Shown here: positions 9,645 through 60,818 of the stretch, piece after piece
How the letters are laid out: every line of letters starts with the position of its first letter
Numbering within the stretch: position 1 is the stretch's first letter
Assembly: GCA_002840165.1 (NCBI GenBank)
Contig: PGZN01000005.1
Span: forward strand, 7,478 to 71,477
Reading direction: 5' to 3'
Length of the DNA stretch: 64,000 nucleotides
DNA from: Firmicutes bacterium HGW-Firmicutes-8
Lineage (GTDB): Bacteria; Bacillota; Thermincolia; Thermincolales; UBA2595
Translations under genes and position numbers: made by a program
The notes under the pieces: generated by a model
The model's database searches: none
What the model saw: only the letters and a program-made list of their open reading frames with translations
What the model was told of the DNA's origin: nothing

Positions 9645-11915
9645 TTGCCAAAGAGAATCAAAATATTTATCAGTCTGATTTTATTTATTATTTATACTCT
9701 GGCCTTGGCCGCCGGACCTCTGGCCGCCAAAGGTCCGGATAAGAACCTGCCGGAGCATGGGCGGGCTGTTATAGTTGTAATTGATAAGATTTCGTGGGGC
9801 GATTTTGAGAAAGCCAATATCCCGGCGCTGAAAAAACTCGCCTCTGAAGGGGCCGTCGGGTTAATGACAACAAACCCGGCCGGAGGGAGCCCCAGAATAT
9901 CTCAAAACACGTATACTACAATCGGCGCCGGCGCTAAAGTACAGGGTTCCCAGTCAGGAGGCATGGCCTTCCACTCAACGGAGAAATATGAAAACGATAC
10001 CGCCGGTGTCGAATATTACAGGCGGACAGGCCTGCATGCAGGTGACAGGCAGGTAGTTCATCTGGGCATCGGCGAAACGAAAAAAGTCAATCTTAGCTTA
10101 AAATACAGTTATTCAATTGGGGCAATCGGAACTGTACTGCACCAGAACGAGTTAAAGACAGCTGTTATCGGCAATGCCGATATGCCCGGTTACCCTCAGC
10201 GGGAACAAAGGTATCACCGCGAGGCCGTGAATATCGCCATGGATAACTCCGGGATCGTAGACTATGGCAGTATATCATCCAATTCCTATTTGCCTGATCC
10301 ACGCAGTTTGGCCGGTGTTAAAACAGACTACAGGGCATTGTTGAACGAGTTTAACTATTTAAGCCAAAAAGCCAACCTGATCGTCATAGAAACCGGCGAT
10401 ACTTCCAGAATTGAGGAAATGACTCATCTAACCTCAGACGGTGTCGGGTCGGACGAAAAACTGAAAGCCCTGGCAGAGGTTGATACATTTATCGGTCAGC
10501 TGGTTAACATAATTGACTTGAAAAAAGACCTGCTGATGGTGGTCGCACCCGGGCCGTCAAATGAGGCGATGGAGCAGGGGGACTTCCTGACTCCATTTAT
10601 CATGGCCGGGAAAGATATCAGTAAGGGGTTAGTGTGGTCCGGAACGATAAAACGAAACGGGCTCATTGCAAATATCGATGTGGCCTCCAAAATTCTCGGT
10701 TATTTCACGCTTCCTCAGGTGGTTAAGGGCGACGGAACCGAGAAAGATATTTCGCTTGGCGGTCAGGTTATTGAGAGCAGGAATTCTGCTGACCCTATGG
10801 GGAAAATATCAAAACTCGGCAGAAATGCGGTTTTTTTGTATAATGCCCGATATCCTTTTGTCAAAAGCTATATAAATTCCGAACTTATTGTCCTCATCAT
10901 ATTTCTAGGCGCTGTTATCTGGCGAAAAAAAATCGGCAGATACCTGACACCCCTATTTCTGGGGTTTACTACCGTGCCTGGGATAATGCTGTGGGTCAAT
11001 TTGTTCCCCCGCCCCTCATTGGGTATTCTGGGAATAGAAGTAATCGGGGCTGCAGCCGTGATTACTCTTGGGGCACTGTTTATTGGACGAAAAAGGCCTT
11101 TGACCCCCTTCTTGATTACTTCAGGTTTAACTGCATTATTGATCGTTATAGATATATTTATCGGCGCCCCGCTGGCCAAAACATCTCCCTTCAGTTATGA
11201 TGTGATGTCAGGGGCCAGGTTTTACGGTATCGGCAATGAATACGCGGGAGTTCTTATTGGCTGTACAGTTGTTTTTGCCGGCCTGCTTATGGATATGTTT
11301 AAACACAGTCTCAAAATAATAAAGGTAATTAACTTAATAATGTTTTTAACGGTAATATATACGATAGCGGCTCCAAATCTTGGCACGGAGGTAGGTGGTA
11401 CAATTGCCGCCGCAGCCGGGTTCGGTATCACCGGGCTGATAATGTACGGGGGGAGTATAAATAGGAGGGCTGTTATCACGATAACGGTATCAGTCGTGGC
11501 GGTTCTAACTTGTTTTATCGCTTATGATTTGACAAGAGCAGTGGAAGCCCAATCCCACATCGGTCGGACAATCACCCTAATCAGCAGTGGTGGGCCGGAC
11601 GAGATAGGCAATATTATCACTCGTAAATGGATTGTCAATTGGAGATTGATAACAGGGACTACATGGAGTTGGTATTACTTTATCAGTGTGTTGGCCGTTC
11701 CTTTATTGGGCAGGCGTTTTCCCAGTGAATGCACGAGGTTTAAAGAAAACTATCCCTGGTTCAATAAATTCCTGACCGGGGTTTTTGTGAGCAGTATCTT
11801 TACTCTTCTTTTAAACGATTCCGGCATCGTATCTGCTGCGATGATGATAACTTACGCCATTTGGCCGTTCCTGACAGGCATCATTGCGAGTTGTCAGTTG
11901 ACAGTTGACAGTTGA
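9645..11915 (+). CDS. Large membrane protein, paralog of 2455..4572
   Basis: 756 aa with the same architecture and conserved blocks (GARFYGIGNEYAGVLIG, GTEVGGTIAAAAG). The last residues (..QLTVDS) and the stop are encoded by a heptamer array. Confidence 0.7.
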   Translation: MPKRIKIFISLILFIIYTLALAAGPLAAKGPDKNLPEHGRAVIVVIDKISWGDFEKANIPALKKLASEGAVGLMTTNPAGGSPRISQNTYTTIGAGAKVQGSQSGGMAFHSTEKYENDTAGVEYYRRTGLHAGDRQVVHLGIGETKKVNLSLKYSYSIGAIGTVLHQNELKTAVIGNADMPGYPQREQRYHREAVNIAMDNSGIVDYGSISSNSYLPDPRSLAGVKTDYRALLNEFNYLSQKANLIVIETGDTSRIEEMTHLTSDGVGSDEKLKALAEVDTFIGQLVNIIDLKKDLLMVVAPGPSNEAMEQGDFLTPFIMAGKDISKGLVWSGTIKRNGLIANIDVASKILGYFTLPQVVKGDGTEKDISLGGQVIESRNSADPMGKISKLGRNAVFLYNARYPFVKSYINSELIVLIIFLGAVIWRKKIGRYLTPLFLGFTTVPGIMLWVNLFPRPSLGILGIEVIGAAAVITLGALFIGRKRPLTPFLITSGLTALLIVIDIFIGAPLAKTSPFSYDVMSGARFYGIGNEYAGVLIGCTVVFAGLLMDMFKHSLKIIKVINLIMFLTVIYTIAAPNLGTEVGGTIAAAAGFGITGLIMYGGSINRRAVITITVSVVAVLTCFIAYDLTRAVEAQSHIGRTITLISSGGPDEIGNIITRKWIVNWRLITGTTWSWYYFISVLAVPLLGRRFPSECTRFKENYPWFNKFLTGVFVSSIFTLLLNDSGIVSAAMMITYAIWPFLTGIIASCQLTVDS

Positions 11916-12002
11916 CAGTATAAAACATTTTAGCATCGTTCCCAGTAATGCGGAATGATATATATCAGATATCTGACAACTGTCAACTGACAACTGTCAA
12001 CT
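11890..12002. repeat. Inverted pair of heptamer arrays: (GTTGACA)x4 at 11890-11919 and (CTGACAA/CTGTCAA)x4 at 11973-12002
   Basis: Period-7 tandem units read directly. The second array is an imperfect reverse complement of the first, with a 53-nt spacer. Confidence 0.9.
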
Positions 12003-13015: not shown

Positions 13016-13092
13016 ACAATTGACAATTGACAATTGACAATTGACAATTAGCAGCTAGCAGCTAGCAGCTAGCAACTAGCAACTAGCAACTA
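13016..13092. repeat. Composite heptamer array: (ACAATTG)x5 then (TAGCAGC)x3 then (TAGCAAC)x3
   Basis: Eleven contiguous 7-nt units that end a few nt before the RBS GAAGGAGGG of the next gene. Confidence 0.9.
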
Positions 13093-13112: not shown

Positions 13113-13310
13113 ATGTTTCGTAAAGAAATGTCTATAATGGAAGCCCTGCAGGTACACCCGAAAGCAAGGGATATCTTCAAAAAACATGGAATGGCCTGTC
13201 TTAGCTGCATGGGTGCAATGCAAGAGACAATACAGGTCGGTGCAGAAATGCATGACATAAAGACTGATGTTCTAATAAAAGAGTTAAACGCTTTGCTGGT
13301 GGAAAATTGA
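13113..13310 (+). CDS. DUF1858 / hybrid-cluster-protein-associated redox disulfide domain protein
   Basis: A 65-aa ORF with ..IFKKHGMACLSCMGAMQETI..HDI..LIKELN, a typical DUF1858 pattern. Confidence 0.6.
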   Translation: MFRKEMSIMEALQVHPKARDIFKKHGMACLSCMGAMQETIQVGAEMHDIKTDVLIKELNALLVEN

Positions 13311-24268: not shown

Positions 24269-24300
24269 GTTGACAGTTGACAGATGACAGTTGACAGTGA
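24269..24300. repeat. Heptamer array GTTGACA x4 (one GATGACA variant)
   Basis: Direct reading. It lies at the left boundary of the AT-rich islet. Confidence 0.85.
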
Positions 24301-39375: not shown

Positions 39376-39459
39376 ACAATTGACAATTGACAATGGACAA
39401 TGGACAATTGACAATGGAGAGTGGAGAGTGGAGAGTGGAGAGTGGAGAGTGGAGAGTGC
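39376..39459. repeat. 12-unit heptamer array: ACAATTG x2, ACAATGG x2, ACAATTG, ACAATGG, AGAGTGG x5, AGAGTGC
   Basis: Direct reading. Translation through it creates the spurious N-terminus of track ORF 39387. Confidence 0.9.
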
Positions 39460-39644
39460 TCTACGCCCTGCGGGCTCCGAGGGGGTCGGAAGAGTTTGCT
39501 GGCGCAAACTCTCGATTATATAAAAAGACTGCCAGCCTTTTGTCATTACTGAGTCCCCAAATTTATGCAGGAAAAATTAGTTTTTTGTCTAATAGTCCAT
39601 TTATACTGCTCAATAATAATGAGCATGAATCGAGTGTGATAACA

Positions 39645-40571
39645 ATGCCAAGGTCAAAAGGCAAAGATATGTGTGAGATTTTTGGTTTTACTCCGGACGA
39701 TTTAACGTCTGAGTGTAGAAATTATTGGGCTAGAGAAATTTGTCCATTTATTGGAACTAAGTGTACCAAGTATAATCACGATAAGTCATTAATCTACGGA
39801 GTATGTTCGGTTGTAACAAGCAATCAAGAAACAATAATATGCCCAAAGCGTTTATATGCCGAAAGTTATAAAACTTTAAGAGATGTATGTGCTGACGCTT
39901 TTGGATATCTTCCACTTTACCTAGTGAATGAAGTAAAAACACTTGAACTTGTTAAAGAAAAACCAAACGAGTTTGTAGTTGCATTTGGACAAAATTCCGG
40001 CAGAGAAATTCAGGTCGGCTCTAGTAGAAATAAACTCAGTATGGATTGGGTCTTAGTCCGAGTAGTTGATGGCAAAGCATTTGAAATTGCGGGTGTTGAA
40101 GTCCAAAGCATTGATATAACCAACAATTATAGAACAATTTGGGAAGCTTATAGAAACCTAGAATCTAATCCTAACATATCAATACCTGTTTCTACTCATG
40201 GAATGAATTGGGCTAATGTACATAAACGTTTAATCCCACAAATAATTAGAAAAGGTCAAATATATGCTGATTCTAAGCTAGCAACAAAAGGTATGTACTT
40301 TATTTTGCCGGATACAGTCTATTCAAGGTTTGAAGATATTGTAGGACATACGACTCCCAAAGCTTTACCTGGCAAAGGAATTCTAAGTGTTTTTACTTAT
40401 TCATTAGGTAAATCGGTAGACCGTGGGAAAATACGAAATTTAGAAAGGACAAGAATTATTAGAGTGTCTCTTGAAGAATTTGCTTTAAATTTCATATCTG
40501 GAGGGAAAATACCCGGTTCCAGTCTTGATGAGGCAGTTGAGCAACAAGTACTAAATCTGTTAAAAAATTAA
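39645..40571 (+). CDS. Type II restriction endonuclease, NotI-like family
   Basis: The N-terminal Cys cluster (..ICPFIGTKCTKYN..GVCSVV..IICPKRL) and the blocks SMDWVLVRV..GVEVQSIDITNNY and NWANVHKRLIPQI parallel what I recall of NotI. AT-rich, and adjacent to a C5-MTase. The start is uncertain (39645 or 39669). Confidence 0.6.
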   Translation: MPRSKGKDMCEIFGFTPDDLTSECRNYWAREICPFIGTKCTKYNHDKSLIYGVCSVVTSNQETIICPKRLYAESYKTLRDVCADAFGYLPLYLVNEVKTLELVKEKPNEFVVAFGQNSGREIQVGSSRNKLSMDWVLVRVVDGKAFEIAGVEVQSIDITNNYRTIWEAYRNLESNPNISIPVSTHGMNWANVHKRLIPQIIRKGQIYADSKLATKGMYFILPDTVYSRFEDIVGHTTPKALPGKGILSVFTYSLGKSVDRGKIRNLERTRIIRVSLEEFALNFISGGKIPGSSLDEAVEQQVLNLLKN

Positions 40572-40602
40572 GTGTGATTAATTTACAGTCGGGGTGAATT
40601 TT

Positions 40603-41814
40603 ATGTCTAAATTGTATGCCATTGACTTGTTCTGTGGTGCTGGTGGATTATCCGAGGGTCTTGCTCAAGCCGGATTTCAGATTAATTTTGCTAGTGATAT
40701 TAATAAGACCTATACACAGACACATAAATACAACCATCCAAACACTTATGTTTATACCGACGATATTAGAAATCTATCGAACAACCAAGTTCTAGAACTT
40801 TGTAAAGTCATGCCAGGAGAATTAGATTTACTAGCAGGCGGTCCACCTTGTCAAGGATTTTCAATTAATGCTCCTATTAGAACAATGAAAGACGATAGAA
40901 ATCATCTTTTCAAAGAATTTCTGCGTATTGCTGAAACGCTTAATCCTAAATACATCCTTATAGAAAACGTTCCTGGAATTGTTTCATTAGAAAAGGGTGC
41001 TGTAGTAAAAGCAATTTACTATTCACTTAATAAGTTGGGCTACAAAGTAAATCACATGATTTTATTCGCCGCACATTATGGAGTTCCACAAATGAGATGG
41101 AGAACTTTCTTTATTGCATCGAGATTAACTAATGGCGCCTGTACATTCCCTGAACCTACTCATTATGCGCAGGGTGTTGCTAATTTTACTGGAGGAAGAA
41201 ATCTTTGTTTTAAACTGTTTTCTAAAGACAGTCTCTTTGGACCTCAATTGATAGACCATACGACTGTTTGGGAAGCAATATCCGACCTCCCGATTATATC
41301 TAACGGTGGTGGTTTTGATGAAATGCAATATGACTCCCCGCCACTCACGAAGTATCAACAACAACTACGGGAAGGCTCAAAGACTCTTTTTAATCATAAA
41401 GCTCCTTCACTGGGGAAAATAAATCTAGAAAGAATGAATTATATACCTCAAGGAGGCAGTTGGAGAGACATACCATATGATTTACTCCCAGCAGGACTAA
41501 AAAGAGCGAGAAGAAGTGATCATACCAAACGATATGGTCGGTTAGACCCAGATGGAATCTGCTCAACAATATTGACTAAATGTGACCCACATTGGGGATC
41601 GTTTTTCCACCCAACACAAGAAAGAACGCTTACCGTTAGAGAAGCCGCTAGGATTCAGTCTTTCCCTGACAAATTTAGGTTTTTGGGGAGTTTAACTGAA
41701 CAATATGAACAAGTTGGAAATGCTGTTCCACCACTTCTAGCTAAAGCAATTGGAGAAATAATTGCAGAGCAAATTAATACTATTCAAGAAAATAGTGAAC
41801 TAAAAGCAGTATAA
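40603..41814 (+). CDS. dcm: DNA (cytosine-5)-methyltransferase
   Basis: Motif I DLFCGAGG, motif IV GGPPCQGFS, motif VI ENV, then RTLTVREAARIQSFPD and GNAVPP. Confidence 0.9.
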   Translation: MSKLYAIDLFCGAGGLSEGLAQAGFQINFASDINKTYTQTHKYNHPNTYVYTDDIRNLSNNQVLELCKVMPGELDLLAGGPPCQGFSINAPIRTMKDDRNHLFKEFLRIAETLNPKYILIENVPGIVSLEKGAVVKAIYYSLNKLGYKVNHMILFAAHYGVPQMRWRTFFIASRLTNGACTFPEPTHYAQGVANFTGGRNLCFKLFSKDSLFGPQLIDHTTVWEAISDLPIISNGGGFDEMQYDSPPLTKYQQQLREGSKTLFNHKAPSLGKINLERMNYIPQGGSWRDIPYDLLPAGLKRARRSDHTKRYGRLDPDGICSTILTKCDPHWGSFFHPTQERTLTVREAARIQSFPDKFRFLGSLTEQYEQVGNAVPPLLAKAIGEIIAEQINTIQENSELKAV

Positions 41815-41821
41815 ACAATAA

Positions 41822-41860
41822 AGAGAGTGATATAGAACCACTCTCTATTTTTGTTTTTTG
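41822..41860 (+). terminator. Rho-independent terminator after the RM genes
   Basis: AGAGAGTG / CACTCTCT stem followed by a long T-rich run. Confidence 0.8.
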
Positions 41861-41951
41861 ATAACAATAATACTGACCAACATTGGAGTCAGGCATTTGT
41901 TACTGCATATAGTGGCGCCTCTGGAAGCACAATATCTTTGAGGTGAATACT

Positions 41952-42170
41952 GTGGAGTTTACAGTGCGGAAAAATTTGGGTACCAATGACAGGGTTATCA
42001 GAGGAATTATGGCCATTTATCTTTTTGTGACTGGGCTTTCCACTGCCGCCCTTCCGGTTTGGGGCCATTTGGTGCTGTTTGCTTTGGGTGTGGGTTTTCT
42101 ACTGGAAGCAATTTCCGGCTACTGACCTGTTTATGATCTGTTGGGTTGGTCAACCCGAAGAAAGGTGTAA
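41952..42170 (+). CDS. DUF2892/YgaP-like small membrane protein with in-frame TGA (candidate selenocysteine) at 42123-42125
   Basis: Track ORF 41943..42125 ends ..LLEAISGY-TGA. The same frame continues PVYDLLGWSTRRKV-TAA (stop 42168-42170). Together this gives N.G..DR..R .. G(Y)-U-PVYDLLGWST, matching the family C-terminal G(F/W)CP(L)Y.LLG.ST motif with TGA at the Cys position. A hairpin lies at 42137-42161. RBS GAGGTG precedes GTG 41952. Confidence 0.6.
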
Positions 42171-42182
42171 TATGACTTTTCA

Positions 42183-42215
42183 AATTGTCAATTGTCAATT
42201 ATCAATTGTCAATTG
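42183..42215. repeat. Heptamer array AATTGTC x4-5 (one AATTATC variant)
   Basis: Direct reading. It is inverted relative to the ACAATTG units at 39376 and contains the stop codon of the minus-strand tmcAL-like gene. Confidence 0.9.
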
Positions 42216-43481: not shown

Positions 43482-43516
43482 AATTGTCAATTGTCAATTG
43501 TCCATTGTCAATTGTA
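43482..43516. repeat. Heptamer array AATTGTC x3 + CATTGTC + AATTGTA
   Basis: Direct reading, immediately upstream (minus sense) of the tmcAL start. Confidence 0.9.
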
Positions 43517-55344: not shown

Positions 55345-56385
55345 TCACATGCCTATATCCTTAAACGTGGCCATCTCATTCAATATTTTTATTGAGGCAT
55401 CCAGGATATTCATCGCCAGGGCAGCCCCTGTGCCTTCCCCGAGCCTCATCTTCATGTCAAGCATAGGCATTAACCCGATAGATTCCAACATTATTCTATG
55501 GGCCTGCTCGGCTGAGCAGTGAGAAGGAATCATGAAGTTTACTGATTTGGGAGCCAGACGTGCTGCCACCAGGGCGCCGGCGCTGCAGATAAATCCGTCA
55601 ATGACAACAGGGACCCTGTTGGCGGCAGCCGCCAGGATAGTTCCGGCAATCCCCGCAATTTCGAGCCCTCCGACCTTGGCCAGGACATCAATGGGGTCAT
55701 TTGGGTCAGGTTTGTTGATTTCGATGGCTGACCTGATGATGTTGGCCTTATTGGCCTGAGCTTCGTCATTAACCCCTGTCCCGCGGCCCGTCACTTCTTC
55801 CGGGGTAAAACCTCCAAATACAGCTAACAGAGCGCTGCTCGGGGTAGTGTTGCCGATGCCCATATCACCGGTGCCCAGGACGACGGCGCCTTTTTTGATT
55901 TCTTCATTCGCGATATCTATCCCCACTTCGACTGCGCGGACAGCTTCGTCACGTGTCATGGCCGGACCCTTGGCCATATTGTCTGTGCCTGGTTTAACTT
56001 TTCTATTCAGCACCCCCGGGTGTTCGATGGGTGAGGCGACTCCGATATCGACTGCGGTAACAGATGCCCCGACATGTCTGGCTAAAACACTAACCCCGGC
56101 TACACCGTTGGGGAACTGGGGCATCATCAGTGTCGTTACGATTGATGGGAAAGCGCTGACTCCTTCCTGGACGACCCCGTGGTCTCCGCCCATGACGATA
56201 ATTGCCTTTTTGCCGATTTTGGGCCTCGGTTCTCCGTAAATCCCGCTGAGCTGTAAGGCCAGTTCCTCTAAAACACCCAGACTGCCCGGTGGTTTAATAA
56301 GATTGTTCAGCCTGTCCTGGGTTTCCTCCATAGATATGCGGTCTAAGTCACCGATTTGGGAAATTGTTTTTTCCAATAAACTCAT
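55345..56385 (-). CDS. cobT: Nicotinate-nucleotide--dimethylbenzimidazole phosphoribosyltransferase
   Basis: GDMGIGNTT.. and RLGEGTGA motifs. RBS AAAGGAGGAG before ATG 56385. Confidence 0.9.
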   Translation of the reverse strand: MSLLEKTISQIGDLDRISMEETQDRLNNLIKPPGSLGVLEELALQLSGIYGEPRPKIGKKAIIVMGGDHGVVQEGVSAFPSIVTTLMMPQFPNGVAGVSVLARHVGASVTAVDIGVASPIEHPGVLNRKVKPGTDNMAKGPAMTRDEAVRAVEVGIDIANEEIKKGAVVLGTGDMGIGNTTPSSALLAVFGGFTPEEVTGRGTGVNDEAQANKANIIRSAIEINKPDPNDPIDVLAKVGGLEIAGIAGTILAAAANRVPVVIDGFICSAGALVAARLAPKSVNFMIPSHCSAEQAHRIMLESIGLMPMLDMKMRLGEGTGAALAMNILDASIKILNEMATFKDIGM

Positions 56386-56414
56386 TTTTACTCCTCCTTT
56401 ATGATTTTTGGCAA

Positions 56415-56448
56415 AATAAAAAGTTCGCAACCTTTTCAGGTTGTGAAC
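56415..56448 (-). terminator. Expression-platform terminator of the cobalamin riboswitch
   Basis: Minus strand: GTTCACAACC-TGAAAA-GGTTGCGAAC followed by TTTTT, about 30 nt upstream of the cobT RBS. Confidence 0.7.
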
Positions 56449-56454
56449 TTTACC

Positions 56455-56636
56455 ATCCTTCACATAAACCAGCTGGTTTAACAGCTAATGGCAGGTCTCC
56501 TGGCTTGTGGTCATCACATGCATTCGCCTTCCCCGGAGCGGCCGAGTGGCTGTTGAAGCATGTTCCTCACATACAGTGGCGGGTCCGCTTGGGATTTGCA
56601 CCCAATTCCCTATTCTCCTCTTTGAGGCACCAATAA
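56455..56636 (-). ncRNA. Cobalamin (B12) riboswitch aptamer
   Basis: The minus strand reads ..GGTGCCTCAAAGAGGAGAATAGGGAATTGGGTGCAAATCCCAAGCGGACCCGCCACTGTA.. and ends with the B12 box AGCCAGGAGACCTGCC (56490-56505). Confidence 0.85.
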
Positions 56637-56890
56637 CTTTTTTGTGGAATATTCTAAAAATTATATTCTAGACAGCCCTTAAAAATCCTGCTATTTAGGG
56701 AAAAAAATATTTTTTTTATAAGTGCTCAAAACCTTTCTTAGGTAATCGGGAGGCCAGAGGCCCTTTGTCGCAAAATAGGAGAAAATGTCGTCAAAAACCG
56801 ATGGTCTATAGGAGGAAACGTAATATAAAATGTAGAATTGATAATATTCACATGGAAATAAAACCAGTCTTGCCAAATTTACTATAAAGG

Positions 56891-57907: not shown

Positions 57908-57914
57908 GGCTAGC

Positions 57915-57939
57915 TGACAATTGATAATTGACAATTGAC
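57915..57939. repeat. Heptamer array TGACAAT/TGATAAT/TGACAAT(+partial)
   Basis: Direct reading. The inverted partner is at 58734-58752. Confidence 0.8.
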
Positions 57940-58015
57940 CGACAGTAAAACCAGTCACAGGTTATAAAAATCAACAGTTTTACTCAACAAAGGTGCGCCT
58001 TGCAGAGTAAAAACA

Positions 58016-58688: not shown

Positions 58689-58733
58689 CTGGACAATGCA
58701 CAATACACAATGGTTTCAGACTCCTATTTTTTT

Positions 58734-58752
58734 AATTGTCAATTGTCAATTG
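58734..58752. repeat. Heptamer array AATTGTC x2 + AATTGGT, followed by CTGTGGGTCGG motif (58756-58766)
   Basis: Direct reading. (ACAATGC/ACAATAC/ACAATGG) units in the opposite orientation lie at 58693-58713. Confidence 0.8.
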
Positions 58753-59663: not shown

Positions 59664-59684
59664 ACAATTAACAATTGACAATGC
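59664..59684. repeat. Heptamer array ACAATTA/ACAATTG/ACAATGC
   Basis: Direct reading. The inverted partner is at 60798-60818. Confidence 0.75.
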
Positions 59685-60797: not shown

Positions 60798-60818
60798 AAT
60801 TGTCAATTGTTAATTGCA
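60798..60818. repeat. Heptamer array AATTGTC/AATTGTT/AATTGCA followed by CTGTGGGTCGG (60823-60833)
   Basis: Direct reading. Confidence 0.75.

Follow-up and report, generated by a model that had tools for sequence, protein, structure and literature searches.

The in-frame UGA codon at positions 42123-42125 of the 64-kb stretch of DNA analyzed here (the window) is most likely decoded as selenocysteine (Sec), a reading to which we would give a probability of about 85%, so that the small gene at 41952-42170 would be a true selenoprotein gene. The encoded protein belongs to the DUF2892/YgaP-like_TM family, which, judging from the comparison of homologous sequences presented below, probably constitutes a new family of selenoproteins. 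Selenoproteins of bacteria that have Cys homologs and a SECIS element within the coding region are well known, and it is the assignment of this particular family that appears to be new.

The gene can be read directly on the plus strand from a GTG start codon at 41952, although a second in-frame GTG at 41943 offers an alternative start. A Shine-Dalgarno-like GAGGTG (41940-41945), putatively functional and kept in two closely related loci (L001 and L002), lies 6 nt before the GTG. The first part of the coding sequence (41952-42122, 57 codons), with the frame EFTVRKNLGTNDRVIRGIMAIYLFVTGLSTAALPVWGHLVLFALGVGFLLEAISGY, carries an N-terminal NLGTNDRVIRG motif and two transmembrane helices and ends in ...EAISGY, right before the TGA at 42123-42125, which would be the Sec codon (codon 58). 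Past the TGA, the same frame goes on as PVYDLLGWSTRRKV and is closed by a TAA at 42168-42170, this second part of the coding sequence spanning 42126-42170. The recoded product has 72 residues, with the predicted Sec located 15 residues from the C-terminus in a local G-Y-U-P motif. No CxxU or UxxC redox motif occurs in the recoded protein, which would contain one chalcogen residue only. Upstream of the gene, an inverted repeat followed by a T-run (41817-41860, plus strand) is the likely terminator of a preceding DNA methylase gene, in which case the YgaP-like gene would form a separate transcription unit.

In GenBank the gene is deposited as a 57-aa "hypothetical protein" ending at the TGA (PKM47692.1), and the calls of ENA and JGI, where the same contig was independently assembled, are also 57 aa long and end at the same codon. 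Thus, both the open frame between the TGA and the TAA, which an initial annotation of this DNA had noticed, and its expectation that standard annotation would truncate the gene are borne out. The "Desulfotomaculum-type" lineage guessed in that annotation is not established: proteins encoded in the window have identical counterparts among entries PKM47661 to PKM47701 of the metagenome-assembled genome (MAG) "Firmicutes bacterium HGW-Firmicutes-8".

When Cys is substituted for the stop, the protein matches Pfam PF11127 (YgaP-like_TM, formerly DUF2892) with 56.2 bits over profile positions 2-64 of 66, versus 29.9 bits and positions 2-51 for the truncated ORF, both scores being above the gathering cut-off of the family (25.3 bits). 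The gain of 26 bits from the 14 codons after the TGA indicates that the read-through tail matches the C-terminal motif of the family. The window C-terminus, G-Y-[UGA]-P-V-Y-D-L-L-G-W-S-T, fits the motif G-[YFW]-C-P-x-Y-x-L-L-G, and the TGA occupies the place of the conserved Cys, just as the initial annotation had it. Relatives of the protein were hard to retrieve: a word-indexed search with the single protein gave only two of them, and the 60-aa truncated query found only four proteins. A match of this truncated query to a 1455-aa repeat protein (P0004) was discarded as spurious. A profile of eight reconstructed proteins was needed, which yielded 268 family members. The best 120 of these 268, together with P0003 and P0005 from an earlier search, were taken for alignment, and 121 proteins were counted. 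Among these best-scoring relatives, the UGA column is occupied by Cys in 108 of 121 proteins and by Ser in a single one, and the remaining 12 stop exactly one residue short of it. Nine of the 12 short entries correspond to UGA loci, the other three (P0003, P0007 and P0012) being protein entries only. The Cys forms read G-[YFW]-C-P-x-Y-x-L-L-G-W-S-T, with Pro following Cys in 98 of the 108, and Cys159 of E. coli YgaP falls in the same column of the alignment. On a rough tree, the UGA forms group into no fewer than two clusters, besides some singletons, and Cys forms sharing 40-50% identity are interspersed among them. Such a scattered distribution of Sec and Cys is usual for selenoprotein families.

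The only homolog with Ser in the conserved column is P0024, an 87-aa metagenomic protein (GYSPVYDLLGYSS). This protein may represent a replacement of Sec by Ser, since it appears on the rough tree as the sister of the UGA-containing cluster of the window. Searches with the window protein in NCBIfam, which carries the NCBI selenoprotein models, and in PADLOC gave no match, and none was obtained in NCBIfam for its Cys relatives either. Sequence search of the PDB, tblastn against plasmids and comparison with viral contigs also gave no match.

A TGA at this codon, and never a TAA or a TAG, is present in all 11 loci, which come from different assemblies with GC contents from 45 to 73%. Assemblies that carry the UGA form include GCA_016841605.1 (JAENYV01), JAJZZC01 (Bacillota TL1-5.bin93) and CAZGXM01 (Thermoanaerobacteraceae). 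Two of the ten orthologs are close relatives of the window locus (L001 and L002) and show the same TGA and the same 14-residue peptide, with five nucleotide differences from the window in that tail, all of them synonymous. The eight further loci came from scans of species-representative genomes and metagenomes and from look-ups of truncated database proteins, and comprise L003 (a Bacillota MAG with 72% GC), L004 (a Thermoanaerobacteraceae MAG), L005, L006, L007 (73% GC), L013 (GCA_016841605.1), L014 and L015. Their proteins share 36-63% identity with the window protein, and their in-frame tails read P[VL]Y.. (FVLDLIGWST in L013 and L014). L006 and L007 do not contain the exact tail peptide and must have been picked up by the N-terminal search pattern alone, and truncated protein entries led to L013, L014 and L015. 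None of these five loci was therefore selected for its tail, and the result is not an artefact of tail-based searching. The Sec-form loci have no common gene neighbourhood, the neighbours differing between loci. In L013 (9518-12238) and L014 (9032-12365), both of one sub-clade, the UGA gene has a nitrogen-regulation cluster on one side (glutamine synthetase, ammonium transporter and P-II) and mnmG on the other, a neighbourhood common to these two Sec-form loci only.

The second line of evidence is a SECIS-like hairpin on the plus strand (42137-42161) that begins 11 nt past the TGA. It is made of a lower stem (42137-42139 with 42159-42161), a bulged G (42140), an upper stem of 7 bp with one U.G pair (42141-42147 with 42152-42158) and an apical GGUC loop (42148-42151), which is found 22 nt after the UGA. 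The hairpin has a folding energy of -9.0 kcal/mol and ends 6 nt before the TAA, the tail being barely long enough to hold it. The published consensus for bacterial SECIS elements (PMC13188914, Fig. 2) describes an apical loop of 3-9 nt with a G in its first two positions, an upper stem of 4-16 bp, a UGA-loop distance of 16-37 nt and a minimum free energy (MFE) of -7.5 kcal/mol or lower, and the window hairpin agrees with it in all four respects. The initial annotation had described this SECIS-like element with the same coordinates, stems, bulge and loop, and its reading is supported by the agreement with the consensus and by the codon choices, foreign to the Cys forms, that keep the hairpin, as detailed below. 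On energy, the hairpin by itself is weak evidence for a SECIS: the comparison with dinucleotide shuffles is not significant (z = -0.2 to -0.5), and as many as 9.5% of all TGA trinucleotides in the window precede a hairpin that passes the same consensus model. Rfam gave only noise at the gene.

It could be argued that Sec is inserted at this UGA and that the hairpin at 42137-42161 is just a by-product of coding for L-L-G-W-S-T, the real SelB-binding element being located elsewhere. Encoding this peptide does predispose to self-pairing, because GGN-UGG-UCN-ACN tends to pair with itself, and a consensus-passing hairpin arises in 8-66% of synonymous resampling trials, depending on the locus. In the same resampling, the MFE values are weakly distinctive for each locus (p = 0.03-0.5). 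However, a strict implementation of the consensus is passed by 8 of the 11 loci, versus 2.8 expected on synonymous resampling with local codon usage (Poisson-binomial probability 5e-4, and smaller with one locus per lineage), and the other three, whose core stem is the same, fall just short of the threshold (about -7.1 to -7.8 kcal/mol). Ten of the 11 loci retain the 6-bp core, and L003 preserves a stem via a bulge. Double changes are seen at three pairs. The 3' arm is formed by variable codons after Thr that co-vary with the Leu codons of the 5' arm, and compensating changes turn G-C into A-U at pair 5 and U-A into C-G at pair 7. Five orthologs show a GGUCY or GUC loop.

The codons themselves point in the same direction. 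Thr is encoded by ACC in the 11 loci, against a local share of ACC among Thr codons of 31-48%, Ser is always UCN, and the Gly and Ser codons are coupled, GGU always occurring with UCA, in a tetraloop register, and GGG occurring with UCY, in a pentaloop register. In contrast, three Cys forms that share the LLGWST peptide (L025, L027 and L029) use GGC/GGA, AGC/TCG and ACG/ACT codons and form no such hairpin, a control that consists of three independent genes only. Eight plasmid-borne Cys forms do not show the hairpin either, but they have a limited control value, their tail being LG(I/L)(N/S)TC and not LLGWST. No alternative conserved structure was seen. From the excess of passing loci, the hairpin-compatible codons and the Cys forms devoid of the hairpin, the comparison of these genes indicates that the hairpin is more than a coding by-product of L-L-G-W-S-T, and a SelB-binding element located elsewhere is rather improbable.

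The main residual alternative to Sec insertion, in itself quite unlikely, would be a UGA at which a near-cognate or suppressor tRNA inserts Trp, Cys or Arg, or whose meaning has changed in this lineage, with a hairpin that merely slows termination. The weakness of the hairpin as stand-alone evidence would fit such a scenario, and so would the negative search for the Sec machinery: neither the 64-kb window nor some 150 kb of related loci contain selA, selB, selD or tRNA-Sec, the window from 53.5 to 64 kb being covered by ORF, tRNA and Rfam scans only. We infer the Sec trait of the organism from the gene itself. On the other hand, TGA is the ordinary stop of 9 of the 48 long ORFs in the window and terminates the L005 gene too, 14 codons past its internal TGA, which indicates that the genetic code is not reassigned. 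Moreover, the recoded column is one of Cys in the homologs, which is the signature of Sec, the spacing of the hairpin and its G-first loop, including the GGUC loop of fdhF, are of the SelB type, and lineages as different in GC content as 45% and 73% show the same solution. A scan of the window for ORFs split by TGA revealed no other selenoprotein gene. A DUF1858 (PF08984) gene at 13113-13310 (65 aa) was considered as a second one and rejected, as it is a Cys form (CLSC) with an ordinary stop. The DUF1858 family has CxxU selenoprotein members (PMC13188914).

A gene that truly ends at the TGA would give a 57-residue protein without the C-terminal motif, and the next 45 nt would be untranslated, perhaps a remnant of some longer ancestor or an RNA structure serving another purpose. 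The annotations in GenBank, ENA and JGI take this option, and even the truncated ORF scores above the Pfam threshold. As Sec decoding in bacteria is generally inefficient, some truncated product would be expected even with Sec insertion. However, the frame remains open, and P-V-Y-D-L-L-G-W-S-T is kept, mainly through synonymous substitutions, across loci that are 36-50% identical elsewhere. The ten tail codons of the 11 loci show 209 synonymous versus 92 nonsynonymous pairwise differences, with an invariant G-W-S-T and with P, V, Y, D, L and L varying mostly at third positions, a pattern that argues for a translated, constrained peptide under selection at the protein level. The same tail motif of the family follows Cys in 108 homologs. 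Moreover, all 11 loci have TGA as the internal stop, whereas their tails end in a mixture of TAA, TAG and TGA. As judged from these 11 loci, the conservation of the TGA position and of the tail is far beyond chance, and a true end at the TGA is very improbable. Finally, the window comes from a MAG, but the idea that the TGA stems from misassembly, a sequencing error or recent pseudogenization is effectively refuted by the identical gene in the independent ENA, JGI and NCBI assemblies, by the same TGA in ten loci of other samples and organisms, and by a downstream frame and peptide that a pseudogene would not keep.

Regarding the surroundings of the gene, a TTGTCAA/TTGACAA heptamer forms short tandem arrays of 2-5 units scattered over the window (11898-11918, 13020-13047, 24270-24283, 39380-39414, 42185-42212, 43484-43511, 57914-57941, 58729-58749, 59668-59681 and 60800-60813). 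The arrays that were placed relative to genes are intergenic, and one of them lies directly 3' of the YgaP-like gene. A search with a 14-mer gave 31 matches with up to two mismatches, versus 0.8 expected from shuffles, and arrays also flank the orthologous gene in L001 (5950-5975 and 6340-6360) and L002 (1280-1300 and 1600-1630). Between a "Gate"-domain gene and the YgaP-like gene there is a restriction-modification pair (39387-41814), formed by a NotI-like endonuclease (39387-40571, a weak Pfam hit) and a C5 DNA methylase (40594-41814). This pair looks like an insertion, because the "Gate"-domain and YgaP-like genes are adjacent in L001. The Rfam scan of the window detected only a tRNA and a cobalamin riboswitch (RF00174, 121 bits, 56473-56649 on the minus strand, upstream of the minus-strand ORF 55345-56463), both away from the YgaP-like gene.

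With Sec as the preferred reading of the UGA, the expression of the gene would start with the folding of the mRNA just 3' of this codon into the 42137-42161 hairpin as the ribosome approaches. SelB carrying Sec-tRNA(Sec) would bind the GGUC loop and insert Sec in competition with release factor 2, a SelB dependence that we infer. After Sec insertion, the 14 further codons would be translated, producing a 72-residue inner-membrane protein folded as a helical hairpin, in which Sec would stand in for the only conserved Cys of the family. The residue would sit at the membrane-cytoplasm interface, directly before the conserved Pro and between the end of the second transmembrane helix and a C-terminal helix. 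By analogy with YgaP, this site would face the cytoplasmic side of the membrane, and both ends of the protein are probably cytoplasmic, as suggested by their basic residues and by the topology of YgaP. In the AF2 model of a Cys homolog (P0022, not the window protein), helices span residues 15-33 and 40-58 (mean pLDDT 73.6), followed by a break at G-Y-C and by a short helix (62-67) that starts at the Pro. The hydrophobic stretches of the window protein align with the P0022 helices, and a Foldseek comparison of the AF2 model with the PDB gave no match.

Sec/Cys pairs normally mark redox-active or chalcogen-transferring residues, which suggests that the most likely role of this residue would be thiol/selenol redox chemistry or a persulfide-type transfer of sulfur or selenium at the membrane surface. 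As the only conserved Cys of the family has no CxxC-type partner, the reaction would take place between subunits, an option that agrees with the dimeric nature of the YgaP membrane domain, or through the transfer of sulfur or selenium as a persulfide or selenosulfide. The neighbours of the Cys forms include YeeE/YedE and OsmC genes, thioredoxins, catalase and Dps, and a metallo-beta-lactamase-fold (MBL-fold) hydrolase, which is consistent with sulfur or redox stress chemistry. We would lean towards an uncatalogued family of small integral-membrane selenoproteins in which the residue corresponding to YgaP C159 is a catalytic one, working in redox reactions or in sulfur/selenium transfer at the membrane face.

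If confirmed, these data would add one more selenoprotein family to the bacterial catalogue and correct a systematic truncation in GenBank, ENA and JGI, the scale of which can be seen in the at least 12 of 121 best-scoring relatives that end one residue before the conserved Cys column. The protein would also be among the few integral-membrane selenoproteins of bacteria, and its size would be very small. Sec/Cys pairs are well accepted as markers of cysteines that are critical for function and usually redox-active, and the pair described here would single out the one conserved Cys of DUF2892 (C159 in YgaP) as the working residue. The DUF2892 domain is found in many phyla, and the Sec/Cys pair, if true, would offer a first clue to the role of this widespread domain of unknown function, as well as a reason for a second look at the idea that the YgaP membrane domain exports thiocyanate.

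The characterised member of PF11127 is E. coli YgaP, a membrane thiosulfate sulfurtransferase. The window protein shares with this family the N-x-G-x-x-D-R-x-x-R motif, the two transmembrane helices and the G-[YFW]-C-P-x-Y-x-L-L-G motif, but it differs from E. coli YgaP in having a UGA (predicted Sec) in place of Cys, a GWST variant of the tail and a stand-alone architecture of 72 aa, without the N-terminal rhodanese domain of the E. coli protein. In YgaP, C159 is located at the end of the second transmembrane helix (L142-G160) of a dimeric membrane domain, for which thiocyanate export has been hypothesised only (PMC4730233).

In the case of the hairpin, the apical loop of the fdhF SECIS, read directly from the MG1655 sequence, is indeed the GGUC tetraloop named in the initial annotation, and both hairpins are found within the coding region just after the UGA, with one nucleotide bulged on the 5' side of the stem. 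However, the UGA-loop spacing is 22 nt in the window versus 18 nt in fdhF, and the stem sequences are unrelated. The bulges are also different: the window has a G seven pairs below the loop, a feature that varies among orthologs, and fdhF has a U on the 5' side, only three pairs away from the loop. This bulged U of fdhF is important for the binding of E. coli SelB, and in its absence the window hairpin is better classed under the general bSECIS model than as an fdhF-type element.

No mention of PF11127, DUF2892 or YgaP was found among the 119 prokaryotic selenoprotein families or subfamilies listed, with domain identifiers, in Table 1 of a 2026 review (PMC13188914), or in the deep-Sep paper and its supplements. 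A search of the literature gave no paper linking any of the three names to selenocysteine, an unnamed entry in an older supplement being possible, and no paper on HGW-Firmicutes-8. The membrane examples of that review comprise the YeeE/YedE family, the SO_0444 family transporter, a putative mercuric transport protein and SaoP (PMC13188914). The candidate family described here has in common with the catalogued ones the type of evidence on which they stand, that is, a UGA at a Cys column, orthologs with the same UGA, homologs with Cys and a bSECIS-like hairpin downstream.
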